This document shows positions 1 through 60,974 of a stretch of 64,000 bases of DNA, in pieces; position 1 is the stretch's first letter, and each line of letters starts with the position of its first letter. Below the pieces are notes generated by a model. It searched no databases, was not told the origin of the DNA, and saw only the letters and a list, made by a program, of their open reading frames with translations. The translations under genes and the position numbers were made by a program. Source of the DNA: Escherichia coli (lineage in GTDB: Bacteria > Pseudomonadota > Gammaproteobacteria > Enterobacterales > Enterobacteriaceae); NCBI RefSeq assembly GCF_050320075.1, contig NZ_CP190018.1; one strand, given 5' to 3'.

Positions 1-2
1 AT

Positions 3-155
3 AACGTTAAGGGCGTTGCAGAGGGTTCTAAGGCCATCAGAATCACAACGGACCAACTGGAACTACTCAAAGCACAGTCCGCAGTAGCAGGTTGCTCAAT
101 GATTCAGGTGTTAAGCGCAAAGGTCCATCAATTAGCGGATAGGCTGGGGGTTTAA
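3..155 (+). CDS. 3' end of an unknown ORF running in from upstream of the window (partial, about 50 codons visible)
   Basis: Open frame from position 3 with no stop until TAA at 153-155; that stop overlaps the ATG at 155 of the next ORF (TAATG). Not in the ORF track because it has no start inside the window. Confidence 0.3.
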   Translation, partial: NVKGVAEGSKAIRITTDQLELLKAQSAVAGCSMIQVLSAKVHQLADRLGV

Positions 156-580
156 TGCTATGCACATTTGATTATCATGCGTTTTATCGCCATAGAGGCC
201 ACCTTGTCCGTGAGAATAGCGGAACATGGAAAGATTTAACTCGTAATGCTGAACCCTTCACACACCAGCAATTAAAATCCCGCTTCTCCAGATGGAAGAA
301 TGCACCAGCAGATACTGGTGATTTTGAGATTATCCATACCTTCGATTATGCCTCAGAAGATGACCTTCACGATGCAATTAAGCTGATTGAAGACTTCAAT
401 ACCTCAGAAGATGTGGATGGTGACAAATATAAATCCCGTGGTAACCGCTATAACCGTGATGATATCACTCAGGCCATAAATGCTGGTCAATCTCAGCGAT
501 ACATTACAGAAAAATATGGTATTTCACGGAGACAGTATTTCTACGTTAAATCATTGATTAATAAAGACAATTCAAAATAA
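155..580 (+). CDS. hypothetical protein, 141 aa, with a C-terminal helix-turn-helix-like segment
   Basis: ORF-track ORF; ATG overlaps the upstream stop (TAATG); C-terminal stretch DDITQAINAGQSQRYITEKYGISRRQYFYV resembles a DNA-binding HTH; AT-rich codon usage like the rest of the element. Confidence 0.5.
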   Translation: MLCTFDYHAFYRHRGHLVRENSGTWKDLTRNAEPFTHQQLKSRFSRWKNAPADTGDFEIIHTFDYASEDDLHDAIKLIEDFNTSEDVDGDKYKSRGNRYNRDDITQAINAGQSQRYITEKYGISRRQYFYVKSLINKDNSK

Positions 581-717
581 CCATCTCAGTAACGGTAGAA
601 TGCACTTTACAGGCAGAGTTGCACCTTAATTTGATAAATTACCTTACCAGCCAGTGCAACTCCCTCTGTAACCCGCATGATTACTGGTCTCAGAATGGCT
701 ATTTTAAGAGGTCTGAG

Positions 718-1065
718 ATGTGTTTTGTAGGAGATTTAAAAATGAACAACTTCCCATTACAGATTTTCGTTGATAACGACACCGCTATGATGGTGCAAAG
801 CTTCAGTGATGCAGGTATTAGCATTGATTTTGACAGGCTGTTAAAGCTAATGGCTGATAATGAAGAAAACGTCTCTGACTTTATTCACTCGGTGGAGTTT
901 AACGAGCCTCGAATGATGTTACCAATTACAGACAGTAATATGAAAAGATTGGTTATTGAGCAAACGAACAAATACAGTATTTCCCCAGAGCAATTTTTGA
1001 AAGGTGCTGTGACAATCCTGTACAGCGATAATATTTTGGTTACGGATTCCGTGAGGGTTCACTAA
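718..1065 (+). CDS. hypothetical protein, about 115 aa (alternative start at 742)
   Basis: ORF-track ORF 619..1065 begins at a TTG; a better start is ATG 718 preceded by AAGAGG (706-711), or ATG 742 preceded by GGAG. No recognisable motif. Confidence 0.45.
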   Translation: MCFVGDLKMNNFPLQIFVDNDTAMMVQSFSDAGISIDFDRLLKLMADNEENVSDFIHSVEFNEPRMMLPITDSNMKRLVIEQTNKYSISPEQFLKGAVTILYSDNILVTDSVRVH

Positions 1066-1142
1066 TGGGCTTAATAATTGCTTGGACGTTGCTTGGCTTA
1101 TTTGTTGGTTGCTGGGTAGGCAGCACAGTAAATAGAAATTGA
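1065..1142 (+). CDS. candidate 25-aa hydrophobic micro-protein (MGLIIAWTLLGLFVGCWVGSTVNRN)
   Basis: ATG at 1065-1067 overlaps the TAA stop of the preceding ORF (TAATG); a single predicted transmembrane stretch followed by a polar tail; too short to appear in the ORF track. Confidence 0.3.
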   Translation: MGLIIAWTLLGLFVGCWVGSTVNRN

Positions 1143-1166
1143 TGTTACCAATCTGTTAAAAAGCTG

Positions 1167-1195
1167 TTGACAAATAACCTTAAGCATGAGATGAT
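1167..1195 (+). promoter_or_regulatory. sigma70-like promoter candidate (TTGACA, 17-bp spacer, TGn-GATGAT)
   Basis: Perfect -35 hexamer TTGACA at 1167-1172, 17-bp spacer, TG at 1187-1188 and a weak -10 GATGAT at 1190-1195; followed immediately by a short GAGAG/CTCTC hairpin and a T-run. Confidence 0.35.
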
Positions 1196-1359
1196 GGTAA
1201 TAGGGGAGAGCAACTCTCTCTTATTTTTCTTTCAAAATAATCCGATGGATGGATATTCTGAATTGGAAAGGTGCAATGCTTTTCGTCATGGCCTTTCAGT
1301 TTAGTCTGAGAGGCTATCTCAAAAAGTGCTTAATCATTCATTGAACCCTTTACAGCTTT

Positions 1360-1388
1360 GCCCTAACTCATGATTAGGGCTTTCTTTA
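1360..1388 (+). terminator. intrinsic-terminator-like hairpin (GCCCTAA / TTAGGGC) followed by TTTCTTT
   Basis: Perfect 7-bp inverted repeat at 1360-1366 and 1374-1380 with a 7-nt loop, then a U-rich tract. Confidence 0.4.
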
Positions 1389-1636
1389 AGAGTTTTTAAA
1401 CAGAGCTTTTAAAGAAAGTTTTTCCTGAAACTTCGTTAACGTTAAAGCAAACCTTCAAAGCCCTTCACAGATGAGGATGATTCCATGAATATCCGAATCA
1501 CCTATGTTTAGGGCTTTTTTCAGCTTTTAAAAAGCATACTTGGCAAACGCCTTTTAAGCCTCTTCTAAGTTCGAGGATGTCAGGTGTGCTTTTTAAAAAC
1601 TGAAACATAAATTATCTTAGAAGAGGAAAGGTATTA

Positions 1637-2341
1637 ATGGCTATCCGTGATGAAAATGAAATGATTATTGAAAACAAACCAAGTGCACTTGATATTCACG
1701 AATTAAGTTTGCGTGAATCTTTTGATAGAGCTTGGCGGGAATCACACGAAGTAAATAAAGGTCCATATATTCCACCAGAACCACTCGAGATTCCAAGAGT
1801 TGAAATTGATTTTTCTATGAACGAACGGTGTGAACTTGATTTGAAGTTGAAGCTACAACGCCGATATTTCCAAGCTATTAAAGACTCTCAAGAAGCAATG
1901 AGAAGTGTTTATGAGAAAATTCAGTCCAAGCTTGAAGACGAAATTGACGAAATGGCTATTTTGATGGAGCTTCAAACCAATCCTTATGCTTATTTCTCTC
2001 GACTAGACCGTGACGGTTGGGGGTATGACCCTGTAGAGATTGGTAAAGTGATTGCAGATTTACCAGAAGGTCAAAGGGTTATTCGTACGGAAAGGGCCAT
2101 CAGAGCGCCACATCAACTGTCTCTAATTGTTGCTGATAAATCACAAGCTGAGCTTGAAGAAATTGCCAAAGAGAAACTGATGAAAGCAAGAGAAAATGAG
2201 ATTAATTTGCTGAAATCAAGACTGGCTAAGCTGATTAGTGACCATCAAGCGCTGGCTAAGGAGTACCGTCAAGAGTTGGCACAGATTATCAGCTTCAATG
2301 ATTTTCTGAGTGTTCCACGAGAATTTAGCAAGGCTGTTTGA
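1637..2341 (+). CDS. hypothetical acidic protein, 234 aa
   Basis: Strong RBS (AGAGGAAAGG) 7 nt upstream of the ATG; glutamate- and lysine-rich with an apparently helical C-terminal half; no motif recognised. Confidence 0.6.
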   Translation: MAIRDENEMIIENKPSALDIHELSLRESFDRAWRESHEVNKGPYIPPEPLEIPRVEIDFSMNERCELDLKLKLQRRYFQAIKDSQEAMRSVYEKIQSKLEDEIDEMAILMELQTNPYAYFSRLDRDGWGYDPVEIGKVIADLPEGQRVIRTERAIRAPHQLSLIVADKSQAELEEIAKEKLMKARENEINLLKSRLAKLISDHQALAKEYRQELAQIISFNDFLSVPREFSKAV

Positions 2342-2364
2342 TTATGAATTAAAAGAGGTGATTA

Positions 2365-2583
2365 ATGTATGAAGACCGTTTGGAAACTATCAAGGCAGTT
2401 TGTGAAAAACTTAAAAACCAACCACGTAAACCAAAAACGGTAAAGAGTAAGCATCAGCCTGTCACCTCAAACAGCAAAATAAAGATTCGCAAAATTCCTT
2501 CGTGGTGCATTGACCGTATTCCGGTTGGTTCAAGAATTATTCGTGAAGATGGTGATTATCATTGGGTATCAGTTGTTGGTTAG
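2365..2583 (+). CDS. hypothetical small basic protein, 72 aa
   Basis: RBS AAAGAGGTGA upstream of the ATG; lysine/arginine-rich; followed by an intrinsic terminator. Confidence 0.5.
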   Translation: MYEDRLETIKAVCEKLKNQPRKPKTVKSKHQPVTSNSKIKIRKIPSWCIDRIPVGSRIIREDGDYHWVSVVG

Positions 2584-2598
2584 TTAGTAAAAATCTAC

Positions 2599-2638
2599 GG
2601 GAGAGATTATCGAGTGATATCGGTAGCTCTCCCTTTTT
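2599..2638 (+). terminator. rho-independent terminator
   Basis: GGGAGAG (2599-2605) pairs with CTCTCCC (2627-2633), followed by TTTTT. Confidence 0.55.
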
Positions 2639-2671
2639 CGTATATGAACACTTAAGAGGTGAAAAATATGA

Positions 2672-4804
2672 ATGAGCAAATTCACAGTTGATAGTTTTAT
2701 CGTTGAATTAAGCTTCAATGAAAACATTATTAAGGGCTTGCAAAGAGTTGAAAAGGCAGCTTTGCAGTCAGCACAAAGAATTGAAAAGAACCTAAATAAA
2801 GGTTTCAGGATTAATACAAAGCAGCTTGATAGTAATTTAACGGCTTCTTTAGGGCAGCTTGAAAGGAAGTTTAATAAGGCCTTTGACAAGATTGAACAGA
2901 GAGCAAGAAATACTAAAGCTTTCCAGTTTACCACCAGATTTAATGACACTGTTAATCCTCCAAAACAACCGAGACAGCCACGAATTAGCGGCAACAGAGC
3001 AATCACAGCAGCTTACTCAGCGAATATGAGCAAGCTAAAAGGCTTTGACCCTATTTTGCAGAAATACATCAAATCTCAGTTTTACGGGCTATCTGCTAAA
3101 GCCGGTTCAATGGATTCTTCAAAATTCAATGAGAAGTTAGCTCAGTTAAACGCTTCAGTCAGAGAAGCAATTGCTAAAGCCAGAGGTCATACATCCACCA
3201 GCATTAATGGTGACAGAGCAGCTAATAGTCTTGATAACCTGTCTTCAGCAGCAGTTAAAACAGCAGGTGCATTTATCTCAATGCAGGCTGTATTAGCCAG
3301 TTATCAGAAGATTATGGAAATTGGTTTACAGCGTGCAAGTGCTGAACGTTCAATTGATTTCGTATTTGATAAAGATGCAGGTCAAGTAAAAGAGTTCACA
3401 AAGTCATTAGCTCAAACAACGGGTTTAGATATCGCTGAACTGCAATCACAGTTTGCTGGTTTTGGTGCTTCAGCTAAAGAGTCTATGGGCATTCAAGGTT
3501 CTGAAGAACTTTTTAAAAATATGATTGGCTATGCTCGTCTGATGGGGAGAAGTGAAGAAGAGATTAAGCGAGCACTGACAGCATTATCACAGATGGCTGG
3601 TAAGGGTCAGGTTATGGCTGAAGAGCTTAAGGGGCAATTAGCTGAAGCTGTTCCTGGTATGGTTCAGGTATTCGCTAAAGCAACCGGAAGGAATGAACAA
3701 GAGCTATTTGATGCCATGAAGAAGGGGGCTTTAAAATCTGCCGATACTCTTCAGAAGGTCACTCAGGAACTGAATAAACAAATCACCGCTAAAGGTGGCT
3801 GGAAAGCTATTTCAGAAAGTACACAGGCACAACTAGGGAACCTGAAAAACTCTTGGAATACCACGCTTGATAGTATCTTCAGAGGTTCTGAAGATGGTCT
3901 GCAAGATTTTACAAGAAGCTTAACAACGCTTTTAAACGCTCTTGGTGGAAGTGGTAAAAGTCTTGGTGAATCTCTTGGTAGTCTCATGACTTCTATGTCA
4001 CATGGTGTCGATTCATTGACTGATATCAGCTACAGGGTAAGAGCATTCTTCGATGAGGTGACATTAGCTTACCGTTCACTAAATGACACTCAGAAAAAAA
4101 TTGTTGATGGTTTATCTGATGGGTTAATTGATGGTTTGAAGATGCTTGCCGTAGCTGTTACTGCTCAAAAGGCTGCAAATGTAGCTGGAGGCTTGTTAAA
4201 CCTTGCAAATGCTGTTACTTCATTCGGTGATGCTGTTAATAAAGCTAAAGCTGGCAAGGCTGGTTCTTCAGGTGGTGCGCTAAATAAAGTTGGTAGAGTT
4301 GTTCTTTATGCTGAGTTGGTGAACTTTGCTCTTGATAATTTAAACCCTGAAGCGGCTAAGAATCCGAACTTACACCAATCAGGTATTGGAACAGAGACAA
4401 ACTTCAACCCTGAATACAAAGGCGATTCATCTAAACCAAACCAAATTAATGATGGATGGGCTAAGATTGGTAGTTCTATCGCTGACTGGTTTAATGGTGC
4501 GGCTAATAAAATTGCTAACTTCCAAGACCCGATGAATAACTTTGTTAATAACACACAATCAACTCCACCAGCTATCACAGGTGACATGGTTAATAGCAAT
4601 GCTCAACTTGCTATGGCTGTATCAGAGTTAGGAAGAAAGGTAGACGCTTTAACAGTAGAAGCTAAGAAGCCTTTATCAGTTAATATCAAAGGTGAAGCAA
4701 TTGTTAGACCGGATGAACCAGCTTTCTTTACTTTCAATCAATCAGCTAATGACCAGTTCACGCAGGATATGCTCTTAAGTTCAAGCTATCCAGAGGAAGA
4801 ATGA
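2672..4804 (+). CDS. phage tail tape-measure-domain protein (TMP-like), 710 aa
   Basis: RBS AAGAGGTG upstream; helical, alanine/glycine/lysine-rich; the segment ALTALSQMAGKGQVMAEELKGQLAEAVPGMVQVFAKATGRNEQELFDAMKKGALKSADTLQKV matches, from memory, the conserved core of phage tape-measure proteins. Confidence 0.6.
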   Translation: MSKFTVDSFIVELSFNENIIKGLQRVEKAALQSAQRIEKNLNKGFRINTKQLDSNLTASLGQLERKFNKAFDKIEQRARNTKAFQFTTRFNDTVNPPKQPRQPRISGNRAITAAYSANMSKLKGFDPILQKYIKSQFYGLSAKAGSMDSSKFNEKLAQLNASVREAIAKARGHTSTSINGDRAANSLDNLSSAAVKTAGAFISMQAVLASYQKIMEIGLQRASAERSIDFVFDKDAGQVKEFTKSLAQTTGLDIAELQSQFAGFGASAKESMGIQGSEELFKNMIGYARLMGRSEEEIKRALTALSQMAGKGQVMAEELKGQLAEAVPGMVQVFAKATGRNEQELFDAMKKGALKSADTLQKVTQELNKQITAKGGWKAISESTQAQLGNLKNSWNTTLDSIFRGSEDGLQDFTRSLTTLLNALGGSGKSLGESLGSLMTSMSHGVDSLTDISYRVRAFFDEVTLAYRSLNDTQKKIVDGLSDGLIDGLKMLAVAVTAQKAANVAGGLLNLANAVTSFGDAVNKAKAGKAGSSGGALNKVGRVVLYAELVNFALDNLNPEAAKNPNLHQSGIGTETNFNPEYKGDSSKPNQINDGWAKIGSSIADWFNGAANKIANFQDPMNNFVNNTQSTPPAITGDMVNSNAQLAMAVSELGRKVDALTVEAKKPLSVNIKGEAIVRPDEPAFFTFNQSANDQFTQDMLLSSSYPEEE

Positions 4805-4967
4805 TTTCTTATATATCCGTGTGCTACGTGATTTCTTCTGAACAGATATACCCACTAAAAATTATTTTTTACGTAGCTCACGCTTAACAGAGAAAATACT
4901 TATATATCAAAGGCTTGGTTAAAAATGATTAAAATACACTAAGCCTTTGAAATCAAAGGAGAATTTA

Positions 4968-5741
4968 ATGATTTACTCTAATCAGATTCGTTACAGTGGT
5001 AAAGATGGCGTTTACTTTCATCTACAAGGCCAGCCAGATAATTTCTTGTCACTATCAGCTACTGAGAACATGGAATTTGACAGCCCTATGATGGTTACCA
5101 CTCAAAATATGCAATCAGGGCAGACTGTCACAGATAATGTAATGCGTTCACCCAGAACTATTTCAATCAGTGGTGTGGTTGTAGTTGGTGAATCCGGTAG
5201 TATCCTTATCTCAAGAGATAATAAGCTGGTGGAAAACTTCATAGACACTCTTGAAAACTGGCGTGACCAGAAGCAAATTATCTCAGTTGTCTGTAAAGAT
5301 GGTATTAAGATTGACGACTCAATTATTACAAACTTTAAAGCCTCTAAAGATGTTGGTATTGCCAATGGTCTTAGAATCCAATTAACTTTTCAGGAAATTA
5401 ACTTTAAAGCTATTGTGGGTCAGACTGATATCTCGGCTGCGACCGGAAGGACTTCTACCACAAGTGATGGTGGTGCTACCAGTAAAAAGAATACAGGGAA
5501 CACTACGACAAGCTTAGGTAACGGTATGTTGATGTGTCAGGAGCTATATAATCGCTCTACGAGTGAACTTACTAATGAGCAACTTCAAGCCCGTATCAAT
5601 TGTGGTAAAAATGTCAGAGTTAAGAACGGAAAAAGCACCTTCTCAGATGCCGCTAATGAGCAAGCTTCAAAGGTGCTTAATAATGCTGGTACAGGTAGTA
5701 CTTTGAAGAAGTATTCTGTTAATCCTAACAAGCGATACTGA
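4968..5741 (+). CDS. hypothetical protein, 257 aa; possibly a distal-tail-like protein, judged only by position after the tape-measure gene
   Basis: ORF-track ORF 4947..5741 begins at a TTG; preferred start is ATG 4968 preceded by AAGGAG. The N-terminal half looks beta-strand-rich and the C-terminal half is Ser/Thr/Gly/Asn-rich. Confidence 0.5.
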
Positions 5742-5755
5742 CGATAGAATCTCAA

Positions 5756-7279
5756 CTATATGATAACCTCATCAACATCTATTAAACCCCTCTCAGTGAC
5801 TTCAGAAAGCGACTGTATAGCCTCTGTAACGTTGTCTGAGGGGTTTTCTGTTATTGGTAAGGTGATTGCTTTACCGTTGTGAAAAGTTACTTTACAGCGA
5901 CGTTTAGCAGTATTTAAAACGACCTCTTTAACAGCACTTTTGATTATCAGTTGTGCTTCAATCCTTCCCGCCTTTGTAGTCAAGTCACAATCAGACAAAC
6001 AACCCACATCAATAGATTTAAGGCGTTGTGTCTCCTTCTCGATATCCGCATCAACTTGTGATAGCTCATTCTTTAGTTGTCTTAGTTTGCTGGTAATAGC
6101 GGACAAGTCTTCAATTTCAAGTGATAGCTGTACCAGCTTTTCAATATTGCTTGAGATGTGTTCACGGTGTAGCTTCAGTGTGTCTATGGTATTCGTCATA
6201 TCGCTATCAAATCGGTCAAGACGAGATAGCAGGGCAAGCAATGTACCATCGGTTTGCTTACGTGAAAGTCCTTTAGCACTACAACGGTTTTCATTACGAA
6301 GAGGACAACGATAAATCCCGTTTCTTGTATCGCTAAAGCCTGTGATAATCAAAGCATGACCACATTCAGAACAACGGATAACACCTTTGAAAAGATTCAC
6401 AGCCATTGGCTTATCTGAAGCAGGTTTTCTACCGTAACGAGCATATGATAGTTGTTGAACTTTGTAGAATGTTGTTTCATCTATAATTGCAGGATAATAA
6501 CCAGATATCTCCTCACAGCCTTTAGGTGTGAAGTAACCAATTACAGAGCGATTCTTCAAAAGGTCTTGCACTGAGGTTTGACCAAACTTACCTGCTTTGT
6601 ACTGGTTAAGCGTCTGGTGACCTTCAGCATTAAGAGTTCTGACAATCTCCCAGATAGACTTACCCTCTAACCGTAGCTGAAAGCACCTCTTCACAGTCTC
6701 CACTTTCTCAGGTATCACAGAGAAGCTTTTACGGTCATCATTAAGCTTAAGCCATGCAGGACAACGCCTAGAAATCTTGATACCAGCTTTAGCAGCTTCT
6801 TTCTTTGCATCCCATGCAGCTTGTATACGCTCAGCCTTACGTAATGATTCCTCATGCGCCCTTTGCATTATCAAAATGCTTTTAATCAGAGCTAACGGGT
6901 CTTTAAGAGATTCCCTTGTGTAATGTTCACCATCGGACAGGGTGACTACATCTACACCAGAGCGAAGAATGTTTCTGAGTAGCTCACTTGCTTGGTCTAC
7001 GTCCTGACGTGAGAGACGGTCTAAACTCTCGATTAGTAGTGTATCACCAGCTTTAACAAGCCCTTTCTCGATAGCGGTTAAAAAGTCACCTAAGCCACCT
7101 TTCAAGTGCTTACCAGTGAACCCGCTAACGCCTAAATCACGAAAAGTAAGGGATTCATCCAGATAGTACTCAGGATGAGCCTTAAGCCAATCAGTGACCA
7201 TCTTAGCCTGTCGTCTTAATGAGTCGCCTCTGGATTGCTTCTCAGATGAAAACCGGATGTAACTGATTGCACGTTTCAT
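5756..7279 (-). CDS. large serine recombinase (phage-type serine integrase), 507 aa
   Basis: N-terminal resolvase-type catalytic domain (ISYIRFSSEKQSRGDSL...LLIESLDRLSRQ), a central recombinase region, a cysteine-rich zinc-ribbon-like motif (CSECGHALIITG...YRCPLRNENRCSAKG) and a coiled-coil C-terminus; convergent with the cargo genes and adjacent to the host junction. Confidence 0.85.
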   Translation of the reverse strand: MKRAISYIRFSSEKQSRGDSLRRQAKMVTDWLKAHPEYYLDESLTFRDLGVSGFTGKHLKGGLGDFLTAIEKGLVKAGDTLLIESLDRLSRQDVDQASELLRNILRSGVDVVTLSDGEHYTRESLKDPLALIKSILIMQRAHEESLRKAERIQAAWDAKKEAAKAGIKISRRCPAWLKLNDDRKSFSVIPEKVETVKRCFQLRLEGKSIWEIVRTLNAEGHQTLNQYKAGKFGQTSVQDLLKNRSVIGYFTPKGCEEISGYYPAIIDETTFYKVQQLSYARYGRKPASDKPMAVNLFKGVIRCSECGHALIITGFSDTRNGIYRCPLRNENRCSAKGLSRKQTDGTLLALLSRLDRFDSDMTNTIDTLKLHREHISSNIEKLVQLSLEIEDLSAITSKLRQLKNELSQVDADIEKETQRLKSIDVGCLSDCDLTTKAGRIEAQLIIKSAVKEVVLNTAKRRCKVTFHNGKAITLPITENPSDNVTEAIQSLSEVTERGLIDVDEVII

Positions 7280-7346
7280 TGTTCACCTCACCAATAGCAG
7301 TTGGGCTTGTACCAACCCCTAGATTGTATCGCTTTAGATGGTGTAT

Positions 7347-7841
7347 TTAAACGTGTCTAATAAAAATCACCCGATTAACGCCGCGCTGATGTAAACCGCG
7401 ATTAAGCGTTTGTTCCTCTTCCCCTTTGGCGAAAAACTGTGGATGGCGGACTTCCACACCATAATTAAATTCGCCGGGAAGGGAATCGAGAAAATGCCAA
7501 AGCGCAGGCAGATCCCGTGGGCCAAATGTGGCAGGCAGTTGCAGCCAGTATTGCCCAATGCGCGGCGCTAACGGTGACATGCGGGTCAAAAATTCAGTCA
7601 CTAAATCATCGCAATGCCGTAATGCTGCCTGATGCGAAATGGTCGCCGGAAACTTAAAACAGAAGCGAAAATTATCTGTGGTCTGCTCACGCCAGCGCAG
7701 GACAACCTCGGATTTCGGCAGGGCGTAAAGCGTGGTGTTGCCCTCCACACAGTTAAAGTGGCGGGCATACTCTTCAAGGCTGGTGATCCCCAACCGCACC
7801 CATTTAGGATGCGACCATTGCGGCAGACCGATGTAAATCAT
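7347..7841 (-). pseudogene. yecE: yecE (DUF72 family), 5' portion only: reading frame interrupted by the insertion
   Basis: N-terminus [29 protein letters not shown] matches recalled YecE; the frame stops after 164 codons (intact YecE is about 272 aa from memory) exactly where GC-rich host sequence changes to the AT-rich element. Confidence 0.7.
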
Positions 7842-12985: not shown

Positions 12986-13259
12986 GTTGTCATTCCATTG
13001 AAATAGATACGAATATACGTAATAGCATAAAAAATTTATTTTTTCAGGAGGCGCAATGTATATTTTTATTACGCATTTCTTCACTGAATATGTAATATTA
13101 AAATATTTGCTTCCAATATAACCTGTAGAACAAATTATACTGTGCCATTTTTCAGATCATCGGGACACCTCGCAAGTTTTCTTCATCCTTCGCTGGATAT
13201 CTATCCAGCATTTTTTTATCATACAGCATTATCTTTGATTCATTACGCAGGAGCGTCAT

Positions 13260-30354: not shown

Positions 30355-31524
30355 TTAAGCCGCAACCGTCTGTGTGACGGATTTACGCTGGCCTCCATGG
30401 GCAGAAACGACGAGTCCCGCCGCTTGTAATTCCAGTATGCCCTTGCGTTTGATGTTGAGCGCCGCGTTGATATCGCGGTCATGTTCAACTCCACACTCTG
30501 GACACTGCCAGATGCGCTTATGTAATGGCATCTCCGACATTTTGTGACCGCAGCAGTGGCAGGTCTTCGAACTGGCGAACCATTGATCCAGTTTCACCAG
30601 ATGCACACCTTTCTCTGTTGCTTTGTATTCCAGTTTTGTGATGAATCCAGACCATCCAGCATCGCCTATCGCACGAGCCAGATGGTGATTTTTCATCATA
30701 TTTGCCATTTTCAATGTCTCGACAATTACCGCTTGGTTTTCGTCAACAATTGCGCGAGATAACTTGTGCTGGAAATCGGCACGGGCACCGGCTACCCGTT
30801 CGTGAACGGCTGCAAGTTGTATTCTGGCTTTGCGCCTGTTTGCGCTCCCTTTTTTCTTACGGGACAGTGCTTTCTGCTTCCGGCGCAGGTTGCGACTTGC
30901 ATTGATTAGGTGGCGGGGACTGGCAATTTTATTGCCGTCCGATTTGATGACAAAATGCGCCAGCCCCATATCCAGCCCTGTCACATTTGATATCAGTGCG
31001 GGCTTTGCCGGCGCTTCCATCCCGTCGTCACAGAGTAACGACGCGTAGTATTTCCCGGTTGCGCTGCGGCTCAACGTGATACTTTTCAGCATTCCCGTAA
31101 TTTCACGATGTAAACGCGCTTCAATCGGCAAGATTTTCGGTATTTTTATCGCAGCATCAAGGACTTTTATGCCAACACAATGGTAGCTCGATTGTCTGCC
31201 GTGTTTACTTTTAAAGGTAGGTTTACCTGCTTTCAGTTTCGGATTGAAAAAGTTAGAAAAAGCCACGTCGAGGTTAATTACCGCCTGCTGCAACGCAATA
31301 GAATCATATTCTTTAAGCCATCCATACCGGCGGGATTTCTTCGCCACTGCAAGCAGTGGTTTGAGGTCTTTACGCGGGTTTAAATTTACGCGGTGCCGCT
31401 GGTAAGAATGTTTCTTGATATGCAGAGCTTTGTTGTACGCAAAACGCACTGCACCGAACTGGGCGTTGATAAATTCAGCCTGTTCTGGTGTCGGGTAGAT
31501 GCGTACTTTTGTTGCTCTTAACAT
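30355..31524 (-). CDS. tnpB: IS200/IS605-family TnpB (OrfB; RuvC-like RNA-guided nuclease family)
   Basis: 389-aa ORF with an OrfB N-terminal HTH region, a RuvC-like core and a C-terminal zinc finger (CHCCGHKMSEMPLHKRIWQCPECGVEHDRDINAALNI). Confidence 0.85.
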   Translation of the reverse strand: MLRATKVRIYPTPEQAEFINAQFGAVRFAYNKALHIKKHSYQRHRVNLNPRKDLKPLLAVAKKSRRYGWLKEYDSIALQQAVINLDVAFSNFFNPKLKAGKPTFKSKHGRQSSYHCVGIKVLDAAIKIPKILPIEARLHREITGMLKSITLSRSATGKYYASLLCDDGMEAPAKPALISNVTGLDMGLAHFVIKSDGNKIASPRHLINASRNLRRKQKALSRKKKGSANRRKARIQLAAVHERVAGARADFQHKLSRAIVDENQAVIVETLKMANMMKNHHLARAIGDAGWSGFITKLEYKATEKGVHLVKLDQWFASSKTCHCCGHKMSEMPLHKRIWQCPECGVEHDRDINAALNIKRKGILELQAAGLVVSAHGGQRKSVTQTVAA

Positions 31525-31580
31525 AATCAGCGCTCATTGATATAATGCTTTTATTTTAACACTTTAGGTAAATATATCAA

Positions 31581-32006
31581 TTGAGTAATCATGATGATTT
31601 ACTGGCGGGATTTCTCCGCAAACGACACAGTGTCAGTAAGCTGGTTGTGCACCTTATTTTTACGACAAAGTATCGACGCAAACTATTCGACAGTCAGATG
31701 ATCGCTCAGTTGCGTGAGGCTTTTGGCTCCGCTGCGGCAAAGCTTGAATGCGAAATTATTGAGATGGACGGGGAGCCAGACCATGTACACCTGCTGGTTG
31801 CCTACCCGCCAAAACTGGCGGTCAGTGTGATGGTCAATAATTTAAAATCGGTATCATCACGTTTGCTACGCCAGCAGAACGCGCATTTACGCATGCAGAG
31901 TAAAACGGGGCTTTTGTGGTCGAGATCGTACTTTGTCTGTAGCACCGGAGAGGCAACGATTGAAACGCTCAGAGCCTACGTTCAGAGTCAGTCAACACCT
32001 GATTGA
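31581..32006 (+). CDS. tnpA: IS200/IS605-family TnpA (HuH Y1 transposase)
   Basis: 141-aa ORF with a TTG start; HuH motif HVHLLV and a catalytic-Tyr region WSRSYFVCSTG. Confidence 0.8.
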   Translation: MSNHDDLLAGFLRKRHSVSKLVVHLIFTTKYRRKLFDSQMIAQLREAFGSAAAKLECEIIEMDGEPDHVHLLVAYPPKLAVSVMVNNLKSVSSRLLRQQNAHLRMQSKTGLLWSRSYFVCSTGEATIETLRAYVQSQSTPD

Positions 32007-37712: not shown

Positions 37713-37795
37713 TTTAAGCTGATGGCCACCGCGCTTTTTATTGACCATTTTGCACGCAAACTGGAAAACCTGGCGTCGTCATCTATTCTTAAAGG

Positions 37796-37898
37796 GCAAG
37801 GCAACTAAGCCTGCATTAATGCCAACTTTTAGCGCACGGCTCTCTCCCAAGAGCCATTTCCCTGGACCGAATACAGGAATCGTGTTCGGTCTCTTTTT
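37796..37898 (+). ncRNA. sdsR: small RNA SdsR (RyeB); the antisense sRNA RyeA (SraC) is expected to overlap on the - strand
   Basis: GCAAGGCAACTAAGCCTGCATTAATGCCAACTTTTAGCGCACGGCTCTCTCCCAAGAGCC...CGAATACAGGAATCGTGTTCGGTCTCTTTTT matches the recalled SdsR sequence, including its terminator hairpin and U-tail; located between yebY and pphA as expected. Confidence 0.7.
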
Positions 37899-38032
37899 AT
37901 CTGTTAAAAGCCAGAAGCATTCCCTTCGCTGACTTTATAGTCAACCATAACACACACTCTACTGTCTGAGTCCAGCGTTTTTTAACATTCTTGTTAAGAT
38001 TATGTGATCTTTAGCGCGGGAGGAAAATATTG

Positions 38033-52077: not shown

Positions 52078-52234
52078 TACAACCTCTTCTCTTTTTATGT
52101 TCGCTTAATCGTAGCGGCAATATGCGCTGAAGCAAGCGACTCATTCTGAAAAAGCACGAATATCGACATAGTTAGGCGCTGTTTAACTAACGCATGCTAG
52201 TTTAATGACATAAGGTAGGTGAAACGGAGATTGG

Positions 52235-52378
52235 AGTGAAAAAGTTTCGATGGGTCGTTCTGGTTGTCGTGGTGTTGGCTTGCTTGCTGCTTTGGGCGCA
52301 GGTATTCAACATGATGTGCGATCAGGATGTACAATTTTTCAGCGGAATTTGTGCCATTAACCAGTTTATCCCGTGGTG
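52235..52378 (+). CDS. mgrB: PhoQ-inhibiting small membrane protein MgrB (47 aa)
   Basis: GTG start; translation [47 protein letters not shown] matches recalled MgrB; too short for the ORF track. Confidence 0.8.
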
Positions 52379-52453
52379 ATATCATTTTTTCAGCACTAGA
52401 TTTTCTTCCTCTCCAGCAGTGGTAGAATAGCGCCTCTACTCAGAGGTGGTGAA

Positions 52454-52741
52454 ATGAACGAAGTTGTAAATTCAGGCGTGATGAACATTGCGTCTTTGGT
52501 TGTATCGGTGGTGGTTCTTTTTATCGGGCTTATCTTGTGGTTTTTTATCAATCGTGCCAGTTCACGGACTAACGAACAGATTGAACTGCTTGAGGCGTTG
52601 CTGGATCAGCAAAAACGTCAAAATGCTCTGTTACGTCGTTTGTGCGAAGCAAACGAACCTGAGAAAGCAGATAAAAAGACCGTTGAGAGTCAAAAATCGG
52701 TTGAAGACGAAGATATTATTCGTCTGGTCGCCGAACGATAA
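52454..52741 (+). CDS. yebO: small membrane protein YebO
   Basis: 95-aa ORF MNEVVNSGVMNIASLVVSVVVLFIGLILWFF. Confidence 0.8.
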   Translation: MNEVVNSGVMNIASLVVSVVVLFIGLILWFFINRASSRTNEQIELLEALLDQQKRQNALLRRLCEANEPEKADKKTVESQKSVEDEDIIRLVAER

Positions 52742-53410
52742 TCCTTCCTCAATCTTGAGTAACCCCGTCGTTGAAGGGTTACTCAATTCATCCTGATTAT
52801 ACGCACTGTCATGGTGCAACTGCTTCAAATTAAAACTCTGGTCTGACTTCAAATAATTATCATATTATTTATTTGCGTAACGGGATATCAGAAAAAGATA
52901 TTTAGCCCATTAATTTATTAGGATGTTTACATCGGATTTGTGATTAAGCGTGGTATTATTTATTAGCGAAACGTTTCTCTCTTGATTTTTTTGCGCATTC
53001 ATCAATTTTTCTTATTTTAAATTTACAATACCTTTGGCGATTGACTTCTCTTTGGGGTGATCGATAGCCGTTAACTGACTGTTTTATGAGAAAAATTGAT
53101 ATAACTTTTTATTCATTGCATAGCAGAAAATGTGATATTGCACGCACTATGTAATAACTTCTCCCACTGGCCTGGAACAACTGAACTTATTGAACTATGT
53201 TAGAAAATACGTCAGTTTAAGTATCTGCCTGAACTGGCAAGGTTAAGCACAATGATATATCGGCGCGTATTCCGTTGCATAAGTGTGCAAAAAAAGTGGA
53301 AGACGTATCGAGATTTGTGCGTCTGATCGAGACATGTTTAAAAATGGCTTGCCATAATTAACGTTGTATGTGATAACAGATTTCGGGTTAAACGAGGTAC
53401 AGTTCTGTTT

Positions 53411-53554
53411 ATGTGTGGCATTTTCAGTAAAGAAGTCCTGAGTAAACACGTTGACGTTGAATACCGCTTCTCTGCCGAGCCTTATATTGGTGCCTCATGC
53501 AGTAATGTGTCAGTTTTATCTATGTTATGCCTGCGGGCGAAGAAAACAATCTAA
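53411..53554 (+). CDS. yobF: small protein YobF (47 aa)
   Basis: [47 protein letters not shown], 13 bp upstream of cspC; too short for the ORF track. Confidence 0.75.
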
Positions 53555-53566
53555 GGAATTTTTCAA

Positions 53567-53776
53567 ATGGCAAAGATTAAAGGTCAGGTTAAGTGGTTCA
53601 ACGAGTCTAAAGGTTTTGGCTTCATTACTCCGGCTGATGGCAGCAAAGACGTGTTCGTACACTTCTCTGCAATCCAGGGTAATGGTTTCAAAACTCTGGC
53701 TGAAGGTCAGAACGTTGAGTTCGAAATTCAGGACGGTCAGAAAGGTCCGGCAGCTGTTAACGTAACAGCTATCTGA
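53567..53776 (+). CDS. cspC: cold-shock-family protein CspC
   Basis: [37 protein letters not shown]. Confidence 0.95.
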
Positions 53777-53822
53777 TCGAATCCACTGATCTGAAGTGTG
53801 AATACGCTTCAATCTCGCTATA

Positions 53823-53850
53823 AAGCCTCGTCGAATGCGAGGCTTTTTAC
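53823..53850 (+). terminator. rho-independent terminator after cspC
   Basis: AAAGCCTCG-TCGAATG-CGAGGCTTTTT. Confidence 0.6.
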
Positions 53851-53941
53851 TTTGCTTTATCTTCGCTCCAGTCGTTCGGATATTTGCCCGCCGCGTGATT
53901 CGCGTTACACTTGCGGCCTTTAGTATCCTGCCGGAGTTGTC

Positions 53942-54751
53942 ATGTCGTTTTCCTGTCCACTTTGCCATCAGCCTCTTTCGCGTGAAAAAAACAGCTATAT
54001 CTGTCCCCAGCGACATCAGTTTGATATGGCGAAAGAAGGGTATGTCAATCTGCTGCCCGTTCAGCATAAACGGTCTCGTGATCCGGGCGACAGCGCGGAA
54101 ATGATGCAAGCACGCCGCGCATTCTTAGATGCCGGACATTATCAGCCGCTGCGTGATGCAATTGTCGCTCAACTGCGGGAACGGCTTGATGAAAAGGCCA
54201 CAGCGGTGCTGGATATTGGCTGTGGTGAAGGGTATTACACACACGCATTTGCCGATGCGTTGCCCGAAATCACCACGTTTGGCCTGGATGTCTCGAAGGT
54301 AGCGATAAAAGCGGCGGCGAAACGATATCCGCAGGTCACTTTTTGTGTTGCTTCCAGCCACCGTTTGCCGTTTTCCGATACCAGTATGGACGCCATAATA
54401 CGTATTTACGCGCCGTGTAAAGCAGAAGAATTAGCGCGAGTAGTGAAGCCTGGCGGTTGGGTCATTACTGCCACGCCGGGACCGCGACATTTGATGGAGC
54501 TGAAGGGGCTGATTTACAATGAAGTACATCTTCATGCACCTCATGCAGAACAACTGGAAGGTTTTACATTACAGCAGAGTGCTGAGTTGTGTTATCCGAT
54601 GCGTCTTCGCGGTGATGAAGCCGTCGCATTATTGCAGATGACGCCGTTTGCCTGGCGTGCGAAGCCAGAAGTCTGGCAAACACTGGCAGCAAAAGAAGTG
54701 TTCGACTGCCAGACGGACTTTAATATTCACCTCTGGCAGCGTTCTTATTAA
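53942..54751 (+). CDS. rlmA: 23S rRNA m1G745 methyltransferase
   Basis: N-terminal zinc-binding Cys motif (CPLCHQPL...YICPQRH) and SAM-binding motif [11 protein letters not shown]. Confidence 0.9.
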
Positions 54752-55314
54752 CCGTGGAAGTGCGTCCAGAGGATCTGGACGCCGATGCCGATCAGCACCA
54801 GCCCGCCGAGAATTTCCGCTTTTTTCCCAATAATTGAGCCGATAAAGCGACCAACCATCATCCCTAATGTCGACATAATCAAGGTTGCACAACCAATGGC
54901 CAATGCGGTCGCGATAATGTTGACCTGAAGGAAAGCAAGACCAACACCCACAGCCATGGCATCCAGGCTGGTGGCAATCGCGGTGGTTACCAGTAGCCAG
55001 AAACCGTGTCGACGGCGCGGCTCTTCATCTTCATCATCTGCGCCACGAAAACCCTCAATAATCATTCGCCCGCCGAGGAATATCAGCAGCACAAACGCAA
55101 TCCAGTGGTTCCATTCAAGAACAAACCGGCTGGCTAACATGCCCATTCCCCAGCCGATCAGCGGCGTCAGGGTTTCGACGGCACCAAAAATAAGGCCGGT
55201 TCGCAACGCTTCAGAAAATTTCGGTTTATGGAGGGTGGCACCTTTACCGATTGATGCAGCAAATGCATCCATCGACATACCAAACGCAAGAAGAACAGTA
55301 GCAGTGATATTCAT
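54748..55314 (-). CDS. mntP: manganese efflux pump MntP
   Basis: [25 protein letters not shown]; 188 aa after trimming. Confidence 0.9.
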
Positions 55315-55329
55315 GACAACGTCCTGACC

Positions 55330-55550
55330 GGGGTATCCATAAAACACATCATCGCCCCCAGCAAACATGCATACATGAACAACAAGCCGCGATGGTTTTC
55401 GCGTTCATGCAGGCATAGCGATTGATGTGCATATGGTCTCGCCTGACTGAAAGTGTTCAGTCCGTACGTGCCACGTTTTGCAACGAGTATGTTGACACGT
55501 ACATTTCCGGAATCTGGAAATCGGCTACTCCCCAAATGAGGGCGCAACCT
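55330..55550 (-). ncRNA. yybP-ykoY-type manganese riboswitch in the mntP leader; boundaries approximate
   Basis: The long mntP 5' leader contains the conserved GGGGAGUAG element (plus-strand CTACTCCCC at 55525-55533). Confidence 0.5.
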
Positions 55551-58955: not shown

Positions 58956-59417
58956 TTGCTACCTCCTTTATTATCGTTAACACCTCAACGTGCCAGATGT
59001 ATTTTTGAATCGTCGTCCACAATCGAATCGATTCAGATAAGGGCTACAACCAAAAACCCCTGCGTTTCGCGATTTATTTTAGATATCGAAAAAATTATTT
59101 TATGTGATGAAGATCCGTAATTTAACTTTCGATTAGCAGAAATTTCGAAAGGTAAAATATCCTTGTCACATTCGTTTGCAAAGGAAGGTAAATCTTTGCC
59201 AAATCAGAGGCGTCTCTGATATGTTTAACTCCCGTTTAACAACCATGGAGTATAGGGCAGTAGCCCGCAGTATGGATCGTCACCGACGTCATTTCAGCAT
59301 CAGGCCTTTTAACGCCTGCCTTTCTGGCACTCTATGCCGCACCTTTCGTTTGCATTTTGTCGTTACGCCTGCATTATTTCTGGCGTCGAATAGCTATTCC
59401 TTAAGCAGGAGCTTGTC

Positions 59418-60974
59418 ATGGAATTCTTAATGGACCCCTCAATTTGGGCGGGGCTACTCACGCTTGTTGTTCTCGAAATTGTGCTGGGTATCGATAACCT
59501 GGTCTTCATCGCCATTCTTGCTGACAAACTGCCGCCAAAACAACGCGATAAAGCGCGTTTGCTGGGATTATCACTGGCGCTGATTATGCGTCTGGGGCTG
59601 CTGTCGCTGATTTCATGGATGGTCACGCTGACCAAACCGCTATTTACCGTTATGGATTTTTCCTTCTCCGGACGCGACCTGATTATGTTGTTCGGGGGGA
59701 TATTCTTGCTGTTCAAAGCAACAACCGAACTGCATGAACGGCTGGAAAACCGCGATCATGATTCCGGCCACGGTAAAGGCTACGCCAGTTTCTGGGTGGT
59801 CGTCACACAGATCGTCATCCTTGACGCCGTCTTCTCGTTGGATGCGGTAATTACGGCAGTAGGGATGGTTAACCATCTGCCGGTGATGATGGCGGCGGTA
59901 GTGATTGCGATGGCGGTTATGCTGCTGGCATCGAAACCGCTGACGCGATTTGTTAACCAGCATCCAACGGTGGTGGTGCTCTGTCTGAGCTTCCTGTTAA
60001 TGATAGGTCTGAGTCTGGTGGCAGAAGGTTTCGGTTTCCACATTCCGAAAGGTTACCTGTATGCCGCGATTGGCTTCTCGATCATCATCGAAGTGTTTAA
60101 CCAGATTGCGCGTCGCAACTTTATTCGTCACCAGTCGACTTTGCCGCTGCGTGCGCGTACTGCCGATGCCATCCTGCGTTTGATGGGCGGGAAACGTCAG
60201 GCCAATGTTCAGCACGATGCCGATAACCCGATGCCGATGCCGATCCCGGAAGGTGCGTTTGCCGAAGAAGAACGTTACATGATTAACGGCGTATTGACGC
60301 TGGCGTCGCGTTCTCTGCGCGGGATCATGACGCCGCGCGGTGAAATAAGCTGGGTTGACGCTAATCTCGGGGTCGATGAAATCCGCGAGCAGCTGCTCTC
60401 CTCACCGCACAGTCTGTTCCCGGTATGTCGCGGTGAACTGGATGAAATCATCGGTATCGTACGTGCTAAAGAACTGCTGGTGGCGCTGGAAGAGGGCGTT
60501 GATGTGGCGGCGATAGCTTCGGCGTCTCCGGCAATTATCGTTCCGGAAACCCTTGACCCGATCAACCTGCTGGGCGTGCTGCGTCGTGCTCGCGGGAGCT
60601 TTGTTATCGTGACCAACGAGTTTGGTGTGGTACAAGGTCTGGTCACGCCGCTGGATGTGCTGGAAGCCATTGCGGGTGAATTCCCGGACGCAGACGAAAC
60701 GCCGGAAATCATTACCGATGGTGACGGCTGGCTGGTAAAAGGCGGTACAGATTTGCATGCCTTGCAGCAGGCGCTTGATGTTGAGCACCTTGCCGATGAC
60801 GATGATATCGCGACGGTCGCGGGCCTCGTGATCTCGGCAAATGGTCACATTCCCCGTGTGGGCGATGTGATTGATGTAGGGCCACTGCATATCACCATCA
60901 TTGAAGCCAATGATTATCGTGTTGATCTGGTTCGCATTGTTAAAGAGCAACCGGCGCACGATGAAGATGAGTAA
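59418..60974 (+). CDS. yoaE: TerC-family membrane protein with CBS pair and CorC/HlyC domain
   Basis: 518-aa ORF with an N-terminal TerC-like membrane domain and C-terminal CBS/transporter-associated domains. Confidence 0.9.

Follow-up and report, generated by a model that had tools for sequence, protein, structure and literature searches.

The closest described relatives of the locus analysed here are the mgrB and yobF genes of Escherichia coli K-12. K-12 MgrB, whose protein sequence is identical to the one discussed below, is a PhoP-activated membrane peptide that binds and inhibits PhoQ and thus provides negative feedback (Lippa and Goulian, PMC2789325). PhoQ binding and inhibition by MgrB have also been described in PMC8404706, where mutagenesis revealed that residues K2/K3, W20, C28, D31, F34, G37, C39, and W47 matter. 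For K-12 YobF, detection by ribosome profiling and tagging is summarized in PMC11429745 (citing Hemm et al. 2008 and 2010). The same work found the protein to be induced translationally under low Mg and post-transcriptionally by heat and to be membrane-associated when His-tagged, and an E. coli yobF deletion lowered growth yield in low Mg, a defect complemented by the peptide while an ATG-to-TAA mutant failed to do so (PMC11429745). In Salmonella, the phenotype of a yobF deletion was attributed to polarity on cspC and a yobF plasmid gave no rescue (PMC8599858), and pairing of the OxyS RNA near the yobF Shine-Dalgarno (SD) sequence represses yobF-cspC and lowers cspC (PMC10965054). The yobF-cspC operon has two named promoters, yobFp1 and yobFp2, and in ageing colonies it represents a hotspot of mutation (PMC13162491).

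The stretch of E. coli DNA that we analysed, 64 kb long and called the window throughout, is collinear with positions 2254271-2318270 of E. coli YZLc1-3 (NZ_CP123240.1) and differs from it at only two bases (13439 and 19773), so that the RefSeq annotation of that record transfers directly; the K-12 MG1655 counterpart spans sdaA to yecE. A preliminary description of the window had proposed that two known genes of 47 codons, mgrB and yobF, are missing from its ORF track between positions 52235 and 53554. We listed ORFs in all six frames at a minimum of 20 amino acids (the default of the ORF lister being 60) and found, among ca. 40 such ORFs in the 2.3-kb mgrB-yobF stretch, two frames of 47 codons each, mgrB at 52236-52379 (+) beginning with GTG and yobF at 53411-53554 (+) beginning with ATG. 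The proposed interval thus ended correctly with the final base of the stop codon of yobF but began 1 nt 5' of the mgrB GTG. Both genes are absent from the track because of its 60-codon cut-off alone. Database comparison of the two proteins gave family, K-12, and RefSeq matches and no mismatch: DNA and protein are 100% identical to K-12 b1826 (mgrB) and b1824 (yobF), and RefSeq annotates both genes at the matching positions of YZLc1-3 and K-12. MgrB, which as a membrane peptide inhibits the sensor kinase PhoQ, matches Pfam PF13998 (E 2e-18, 66.3 bits, cut-off 27) and the NCBIfam equivalog NF007635 (89.9 bits, cut-off 40, covering residues 1-47 of 47), while YobF reaches 105 bits against PF10736 (DUF2627/DUF2527; cut-off 25) with residues 1-38 on the 38-position model. 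The mgrB SD sequence GGAG (52226-52229, +), 6 nt 5' of the GTG and conserved across species, has an anti-SD duplex energy of -6.6 kcal/mol and that of yobF reaches -7.2 kcal/mol, compared to a median of -6.4 kcal/mol for annotated genes of the window; about 5% of random positions reach -6.1 kcal/mol, which places both ribosome-binding sites (RBS) within about the top 5%. What the 60-codon track displays at these positions are a spurious 62-aa antisense frame over mgrB (52197-52385), a spurious 68-aa antisense frame over the yobF start (53243-53449), and spurious frames of 104 and 194 aa over cspC. The PhoQ feedback inhibitor gene mgrB and yobF, the first cistron and leader of yobF-cspC, are almost certainly catalogued genes that the 60-codon cut-off hid, which we base on the identity of the genes, their membership in families, their synteny, the patterns of conservation, and motifs in the sequence.

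The locus itself is widespread, with 5,417 of 5,426 complete E. coli genomes matching the 2.3-kb mgrB-yobF stretch over at least 80% of its length. Beyond E. coli, a scan of a single genome for each species detected relatives of yobF in 174 species, and we analysed the best 80 of these 174 loci; unless stated otherwise, the counts below refer to this sample. In all 76 loci with enough flanking sequence, mgrB lies 955-1,945 nt upstream of yobF on the same strand and is accompanied by yobH and yebO. The 95-aa yebO gene (52454-52741, +; RefSeq-annotated, Pfam YebO E 7e-36) is located between mgrB and yobF and syntenic in 76 of the 80 loci. It is followed by an AT-rich spacer (52760-53300, 36% GC) that is not conserved between genera, and blastn against the 80 loci detected conservation only from about 53300 onward and neither a hidden gene nor a conserved element in the 670 nt between yebO and yobF, where the K-12 annotation has no feature either. 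On its 3' side, yobF adjoins the co-oriented 69-aa cspC (53567-53776, +; K-12 b1823) in every species examined. The product of this gene carries the PGAP label cspE, and it scores 170 bits against the NCBIfam CspC subfamily and 145 bits against CspE.

The two small genes evolve differently. The yobF ORF is intact in 80 of 80 Enterobacteriaceae loci and also present in Serratia, Rouxiella, Brenneria, and Apirhabdus, and all of the 74 YobF homologues found carry PF10736 except for one partial sequence; the Yersinia entry for YobF is 26 aa long. Across 71 genomes, the third position is variable in only 18% of yobF codons, compared to 61% for cspC, its highly expressed neighbor (Fisher P = 4e-5), and 94% for mgrB (P = 6e-13), and positions 1 or 2 of yobF vary more often (37% of codons) than position 3, meaning that neither a third-position excess of change nor a coding periodicity was detected for yobF in these genomes. 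Mean pS amounts to 0.077 for yobF, 0.226 for cspC, and 0.70 for mgrB. In comparison to Serratia, Rouxiella, and Brenneria, yobF codons 1-26 have a pS of 0.06-0.13 and a pN of 0.08-0.11 (pN/pS about 1), whereas cspC has a pS of 0.45-0.53 and a pN of 0.006-0.02, so that, within shared genomes (the 80 loci and these three genera), conservation of synonymous sites is 3-8 times stronger in yobF than in cspC. The low variability of third positions, the low pS, and the pN/pS of about 1 indicate that conservation of yobF acts at the level of nucleotides. In Yersiniaceae and Pectobacteriaceae, too, this near-invariant DNA extends from a promoter block (AAAAATGGCTTGCCAT ... GTATGTGATAAC) to about codon 25. 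Beyond it, small indels shift the reading frame of the tail, which causes YobF to vary in length between 24, 38, 43, 46, 47, and 56 aa among the sample and the distant genera, whereas the distance between the yobF and cspC start codons stays at 153-163 nt (mostly 156-158) in the 76 loci for which the conserved start served as anchor and at 153-158 nt in Serratia, Rouxiella, and Brenneria.

Several features within and around this block offer candidates for what the nucleotides are conserved for. Its promoter region (53329-53377, +) contains a GAGACA-18-CATAAT match of the promoter scan (53329-53358) that overlaps TTGCCA (53349-53354)-17-TGTGATAAC (53369-53377), the latter being located within the block that shows no variation among 20 genera (AAAAATGGCTTGCCAT, GTATGTGATAAC), and these two candidate sites may correspond to yobFp1 and yobFp2. 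Downstream, the leader segment GGGUUAAACGAGGU (53385-53398, +) contains the yobF SD sequence GAGG (53394-53397), is invariant in the 20 genera except for one position, and pairs with nt 13-27 of K-12 OxyS in a computed duplex; together with the published repression, this pairing site explains a part of the RNA-level constraint on yobF. When the 5' regions of the window were ranked by OxyS duplex energy, yobF came 9th of 66, a ranking that is uninformative because duplexfold rewards long imperfect duplexes, and we thus only used the local complementarity. At the other end of the gene, the yobF stop codon TAA overlaps the SD sequence of cspC (TAAGGA, 53552-53557, +, with AAGGA conserved) 9 nt 5' of the cspC ATG. 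A small hairpin, GCC-UGCG-GGC, in the 3' part of yobF (53529-53538, +) can be aligned to the GCCgaaaGGC hairpin in the cspA model of Rfam at high posterior probability; its stem persists in 18-19 of 20 genera, whereas its loop is variable. The operon ends in an intrinsic terminator (53822-53846, +) that was found by the terminator scan and aligns as the terminal hairpin of Rfam RF01766. Folding the 20 genera with RNAalifold suggested a structure sequestering the yobF SD by pairing it with codons 27-29 around a long hairpin, yet none of its 48 pairs covaries in this sample; as the region hardly varies, leader structure is neither supported nor rejected by covariation. The E. coli leader alone is no more stable than its shuffles (MFE z = +0.89), and on this ground we no longer considered an RNA thermometer with a strong structure. 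The OxyS site, the overlap with the cspC SD, and the hairpin account for part of the conservation but not for the invariant yobF codons 3-25.

We read yobF as a dual-function element whose role as RNA carries most of its deep conservation. It encodes a peptide of 47 aa that is induced by stress and associated with the membrane, and its RNA doubles as the 5' leader of the cspC message, with the OxyS pairing site at the yobF RBS and the yobF stop on the RBS of cspC. The extreme nucleotide conservation probably reflects such a cis-acting role for cspC expression. How much the peptide itself contributes is a different matter: neither codon positions nor pN/pS nor the frameshifted tail revealed purifying selection on the amino acids of YobF beyond the nucleotide constraint. 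This result concerns how yobF is constrained and not whether the gene is yobF. Weak evidence for selection at the peptide level comes from the annotated frame, which has the lowest pN/pS of the three in Enterobacteriaceae (0.43 compared to 1.6 and 2.6). The importance of the YobF peptide accordingly rests on the published experiments, while the conservation measured here is at the level of nucleotides and not of the protein.

The same data lend themselves to a stronger statement, namely that yobF is mainly a cis-acting RNA leader or translated upstream ORF tuning cspC and that its peptide is largely a by-product with little or no function of its own. We regard this as possible but rather doubtful. 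It would readily accommodate that the pS of yobF is well below that of cspC in the same genomes, that third positions vary less often than the other two, that the frame of the tail is lost between genera while its nucleotide spacing to the cspC ATG is kept, and that the stop codon sits on the cspC SD, as well as the lowering of cspC by OxyS acting at the yobF SD (PMC10965054) and the polar nature of the Salmonella phenotype (PMC8599858). On the other hand, the peptide complements the E. coli deletion in trans at low Mg and loses this ability with the ATG-to-TAA change, His-tagged YobF fractionates with membranes (PMC11429745), the annotated frame has the lowest pN/pS, and neither a stable nor a covarying RNA structure was found. 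If the RNA indeed dominated, the yobF ORF would act mainly by being translated, be it through opening of the leader, coupling to the cspC RBS, or sensing of heat or Mg. In its broadest form, and only as a tentative suggestion that we consider rather doubtful, the ca. 140 nt comprising promoter, leader, and about the first 25 codons may form a near-invariant cis-regulatory module for the global RNA chaperone CspC across Enterobacterales, with the YobF peptide being secondary and lineage-variable. In that case, yobF would clearly exemplify a natural "coding leader" with two functions, in which the label of a coding gene draws annotation away from the actual site of selection. Our preferred reading of a dual-function element retains both the peptide and the leader.

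By comparison, mgrB evolves as a normal small protein-coding gene. Its GTG start is present in 75 of 76 loci, the encoded protein has 47 aa in 68 of these 76 and 48 aa in seven, and across the 76 species pS is 0.70 and pN 0.13, giving a pN/pS of 0.19 compared to 0.93 and 2.8 in the other two frames. Pairwise diversity at codon positions 1, 2, and 3 is 0.22, 0.08, and 0.43, respectively, making the third position the most variable, and the evolutionary evidence thus fully backs the status of mgrB as a real gene. The residues singled out by mutagenesis are all present here and vary little or not at all among 69 species, within an architecture in which N-terminal lysines are followed by a single hydrophobic helix containing W20 and a periplasmic tail bearing C28 and C39. 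Upstream of the gene, a direct repeat TAGTTA-GGCGC-TGTTTA (52169-52185, +) resembles the PhoP-box pattern, and its second half-site GTTTA is invariant in the 76 species while the first is nearly so. Given the published regulation of mgrB by PhoP (PMC2789325), this repeat is a putative PhoP site. Active PhoP drives transcription of mgrB, presumably via this repeat, and the resulting 47-aa single-pass inner-membrane peptide binds PhoQ through the transmembrane W20, the N-terminal lysines, and a periplasmic tail held by C28 and C39, damping PhoQ activity and closing the negative feedback loop.

The title of the NCBIfam model NF007635, "PhoP/PhoQ regulatory lipoprotein MgrB", implies another molecule, i.e., a lipoprotein processed at a lipobox whose last residue is C16, and not an uncleaved transmembrane peptide. 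The only candidate lipobox cysteine of MgrB is C16, and the sequence V-L-A-C16 is loosely lipobox-like. With L14 at position -2, however, it is a poor fit to the lipobox consensus. Lippa and Goulian mentioned a possible type II signal (PMC2789325), but four of 69 species have S, G, or A in place of C16, while C28 and C39 are invariant. In published work, a C16A mutant retained full function, and PhoQ binding needed the transmembrane region itself (PMC8404706). The lipoprotein label is unsupported because C16 is replaced in four species and the C16A mutant is functional, and we consider cleavage at C16 highly improbable. Still less credible, to the point of being negligible, is that mgrB and/or yobF are unexpressed chance frames in intergenic DNA, since, short as both are among the many ORFs of this stretch and the ca. 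300 intergenic start/stop combinations of 10-59 aa in the window, both proteins exceed the cut-offs of curated family models, both genes are syntenic across 76-80 species of the sample, mgrB carries a clear coding signature, and direct protein detection and phenotypes have been published for MgrB and YobF alike.

The suspicion that other genes below 60 codons had been missed in the same way, in particular in the phage-like element, was borne out. Two further annotated ones are yobI (21 aa; 13056-13121, +; RefSeq, NCBIfam NF038179 E 2.6e-16, SD -10.3 kcal/mol) and yoaL (52 aa; 59272-59430, +; RefSeq), a leader peptide overlapping the start of yoaE, and a stop codon in yoaL lowers expression of a yoaE-lacZ fusion (bioRxiv 10.1101/511675). 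The homologous K-12 region has no annotated genes below 60 codons beyond mgrB, yobF, yobI, and yoaL. A rescan of the window for all frames of 10-59 aa with RBS scoring screened 305 candidates, and eight unannotated intergenic small ORFs had a good RBS. Seven of these were rejected as no more than expected by chance, given that about 5% of random positions reach an equal SD score, and only the frame at 1065-1142 (+) gained independent support. This reasonable candidate for a small membrane protein of 25 aa (MGLIIAWTLLGLFVGCWVGSTVNRN) is located in the phage-like (yecE) island, and its ATG and the stop codon of the preceding gene overlap as TAATG. Other E. coli genomes supplied five diverged copies of the island, and in these the TAATG junction is followed by either a variant of the 25-aa peptide or an unrelated hydrophobic peptide of 21 aa (MELVIICFVLIGMIAGASIKV), and the DNA after the junction is among the least conserved of this island segment. 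The peptide matches no family in PHROGs or NCBIfam and is absent from a collection of 15 billion proteins by exact-sequence look-up and from every annotation checked; searches with Rfam, PHROGs, NCBIfam, and the exact-sequence look-up likewise returned nothing for the island gap (about 1200-1390) or its small ORF. In this gap, a candidate transcript of roughly 185 nt would extend from a TTGACA promoter up to a terminator at 1360-1380.

Loss of mgrB causes colistin resistance in Klebsiella and is clinically relevant, so annotation pipelines should not drop this gene. In this one 64-kb window, a 60-codon cut-off hides at least four catalogued genes (mgrB, yobF, yobI, and yoaL). As mgrB and yobF are already known, the proposal that they are encoded here is correct but ordinary and matters only as a quality note on ORF cut-offs. 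Only two hypotheses go beyond the textbook, namely that yobF is ultraconserved at the level of its RNA and that the island contains an unannotated small gene. The first is of modest value in pointing to uncharacterized RNA-level control of the global regulator CspC, and the 25-aa membrane peptide candidate of the yecE island is a by-product of similarly modest value.

Compared to K-12, the locus has no distinguishing feature. MgrB of K-12 (YobG, b1826) shares DNA, protein, GTG start, and functional residues with the mgrB of the window, is flanked by the same neighbors yobH and yebO, and is preceded by the same PhoP-box-like repeat; no difference is detectable, and this is one gene in another E. 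coli strain. The same holds for K-12 YobF (b1824, PF10736), which has the same DNA, protein, promoter block, and OxyS site and the same place 12 nt upstream of cspC. Across genera, the conserved core of the YobF family comprises only about the first 25-38 residues, and the tail of the 47-aa E. coli protein is unconserved. The cspA thermoregulator model of Rfam RF01766 matches 53391-53851 at 137.7 bits (gathering threshold 78), with most of the score coming from the cspC coding region, and aligns the small GCC...GGC hairpin and the terminator. The part of the model over the yobF leader, in contrast, aligns poorly, with many non-canonical pairs and low posterior probability. Direct alignment to the K-12 cspA and cspE leaders showed no real similarity, and we therefore rejected a leader shared between yobF and cspA or cspE; these two leaders contain no yobF-like ORF either. 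Closer in kind are leader peptides such as YoaL-yoaE and MgtL-mgtA, which like yobF are short translated ORFs in the leader of a downstream gene, and yobF resembles them further in its stop codon on the downstream RBS and its post-transcriptional regulation. Unlike these leader peptides, YobF has a reported trans-acting phenotype and associates with the membrane.

With a 60-codon cut-off, an ORF track would display spurious frames instead of the real small genes around the 47-aa genes mgrB and yobF, where spurious ORFs of 62 aa (52197-52385, minus strand) and 68 aa (53243-53449, minus strand) lie over mgrB and over the start of yobF, respectively, while two others of 104 aa (53451-53765, plus strand) and 194 aa (53525-54109, minus strand) lie over cspC. 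The latter gene (53567-53776, plus strand) carries the PGAP label cspE in many genomes, which is an inconsistency of naming: it occupies the position of K-12 cspC and scores 170 bits with the NCBIfam CspC subfamily model versus 145 bits with that of CspE.

YobF itself varies in length: a stop at codon 25 leaves only 24 aa in Yokenella regensburgei (locus L078, 3001-3075), and other genera (loci L054, L083 and others) have 38, 43 or 56 aa. The nucleotides around these variable ends remain aligned between genera, which argues that the C-terminal half of E. coli YobF is dispensable or lineage-specific. Upstream, the long spacer from yebO to the yobF promoter (52760-53300) has 36% GC and is unconserved between genera, with an abrupt onset of conservation toward yobF at ca. 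53300. Despite this unconserved sequence, mgrB and yobF are spaced by ca. 1 kb in all 76 species with enough flanking sequence to show both.

On the minus strand, a Mn2+ (yybP-ykoY) riboswitch lies 5' of mntP (55445-55541) and is missed by a default scan because its score of 41.9 bits falls just below the Rfam gathering score of 45. Downstream of it, we found a 12-codon ORF (55311-55349, minus strand; [14 protein letters not shown] -8.4 kcal/mol) whose end overlaps the mntP start as ATGA and which is not mentioned in the mntP paper that we checked. Alternatively, the apparent Shine-Dalgarno sequence of this ORF (GGGGG) could base-pair with CCCC in the expression platform.

The "phage-like element" of the preliminary description is an island of ca. 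12.2 kb that covers 1-7364, extends ca. 4.9 kb to the left of the window and splits yecE into two DUF72 fragments (2249054-2249401 of the collinear record NZ_CP123240.1 and 7365-7841 of the window). It encodes a large serine recombinase at its end (5756-7279, minus strand), a Dam-like methylase and annotated tape measure and baseplate proteins. Four of the five island proteins tested matched no PHROG family, almost no nucleotide relatives were found among sequenced phages, and segments of the island are present in 479 of 5,426 E. coli genomes.

Within its 571-nt unannotated gap, a hydrophobic ORF of 25 aa (1065-1142, plus strand) joins the upstream hypothetical gene at a TAATG overlap, with predicted translational coupling. 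Five diverged copies of the island keep a single-helix peptide at this position, either of 25 aa or of 21 aa, the shorter one being unrelated in sequence; the ORF matched none of the family models or database entries searched. The rest of the gap (1143-1636, plus strand) is strongly conserved non-coding DNA without any match in Rfam. Together with a near-consensus promoter at 1167-1195 (TTGACA-17-TG-GATGAT), two hairpins that resemble terminators, one at 1199-1225 and one at 1360-1380 (the latter keeps its stem despite a changed loop), suggest a putative transcript of ca. 185 nt.

Elsewhere in the window, the overlapping sRNA pair SdsR (RyeB, plus strand) and RyeA (SraC, minus strand) at 37758-37902 scores well above Rfam thresholds, and its presence is expected here. 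Between yebE and ptrB lies an IS200/IS605-family element (30355-32006) with an ISEc46 tnpA and a gene for a TnpB/InsQ RNA-guided endonuclease, whereas the corresponding region of K-12 lacks this element.
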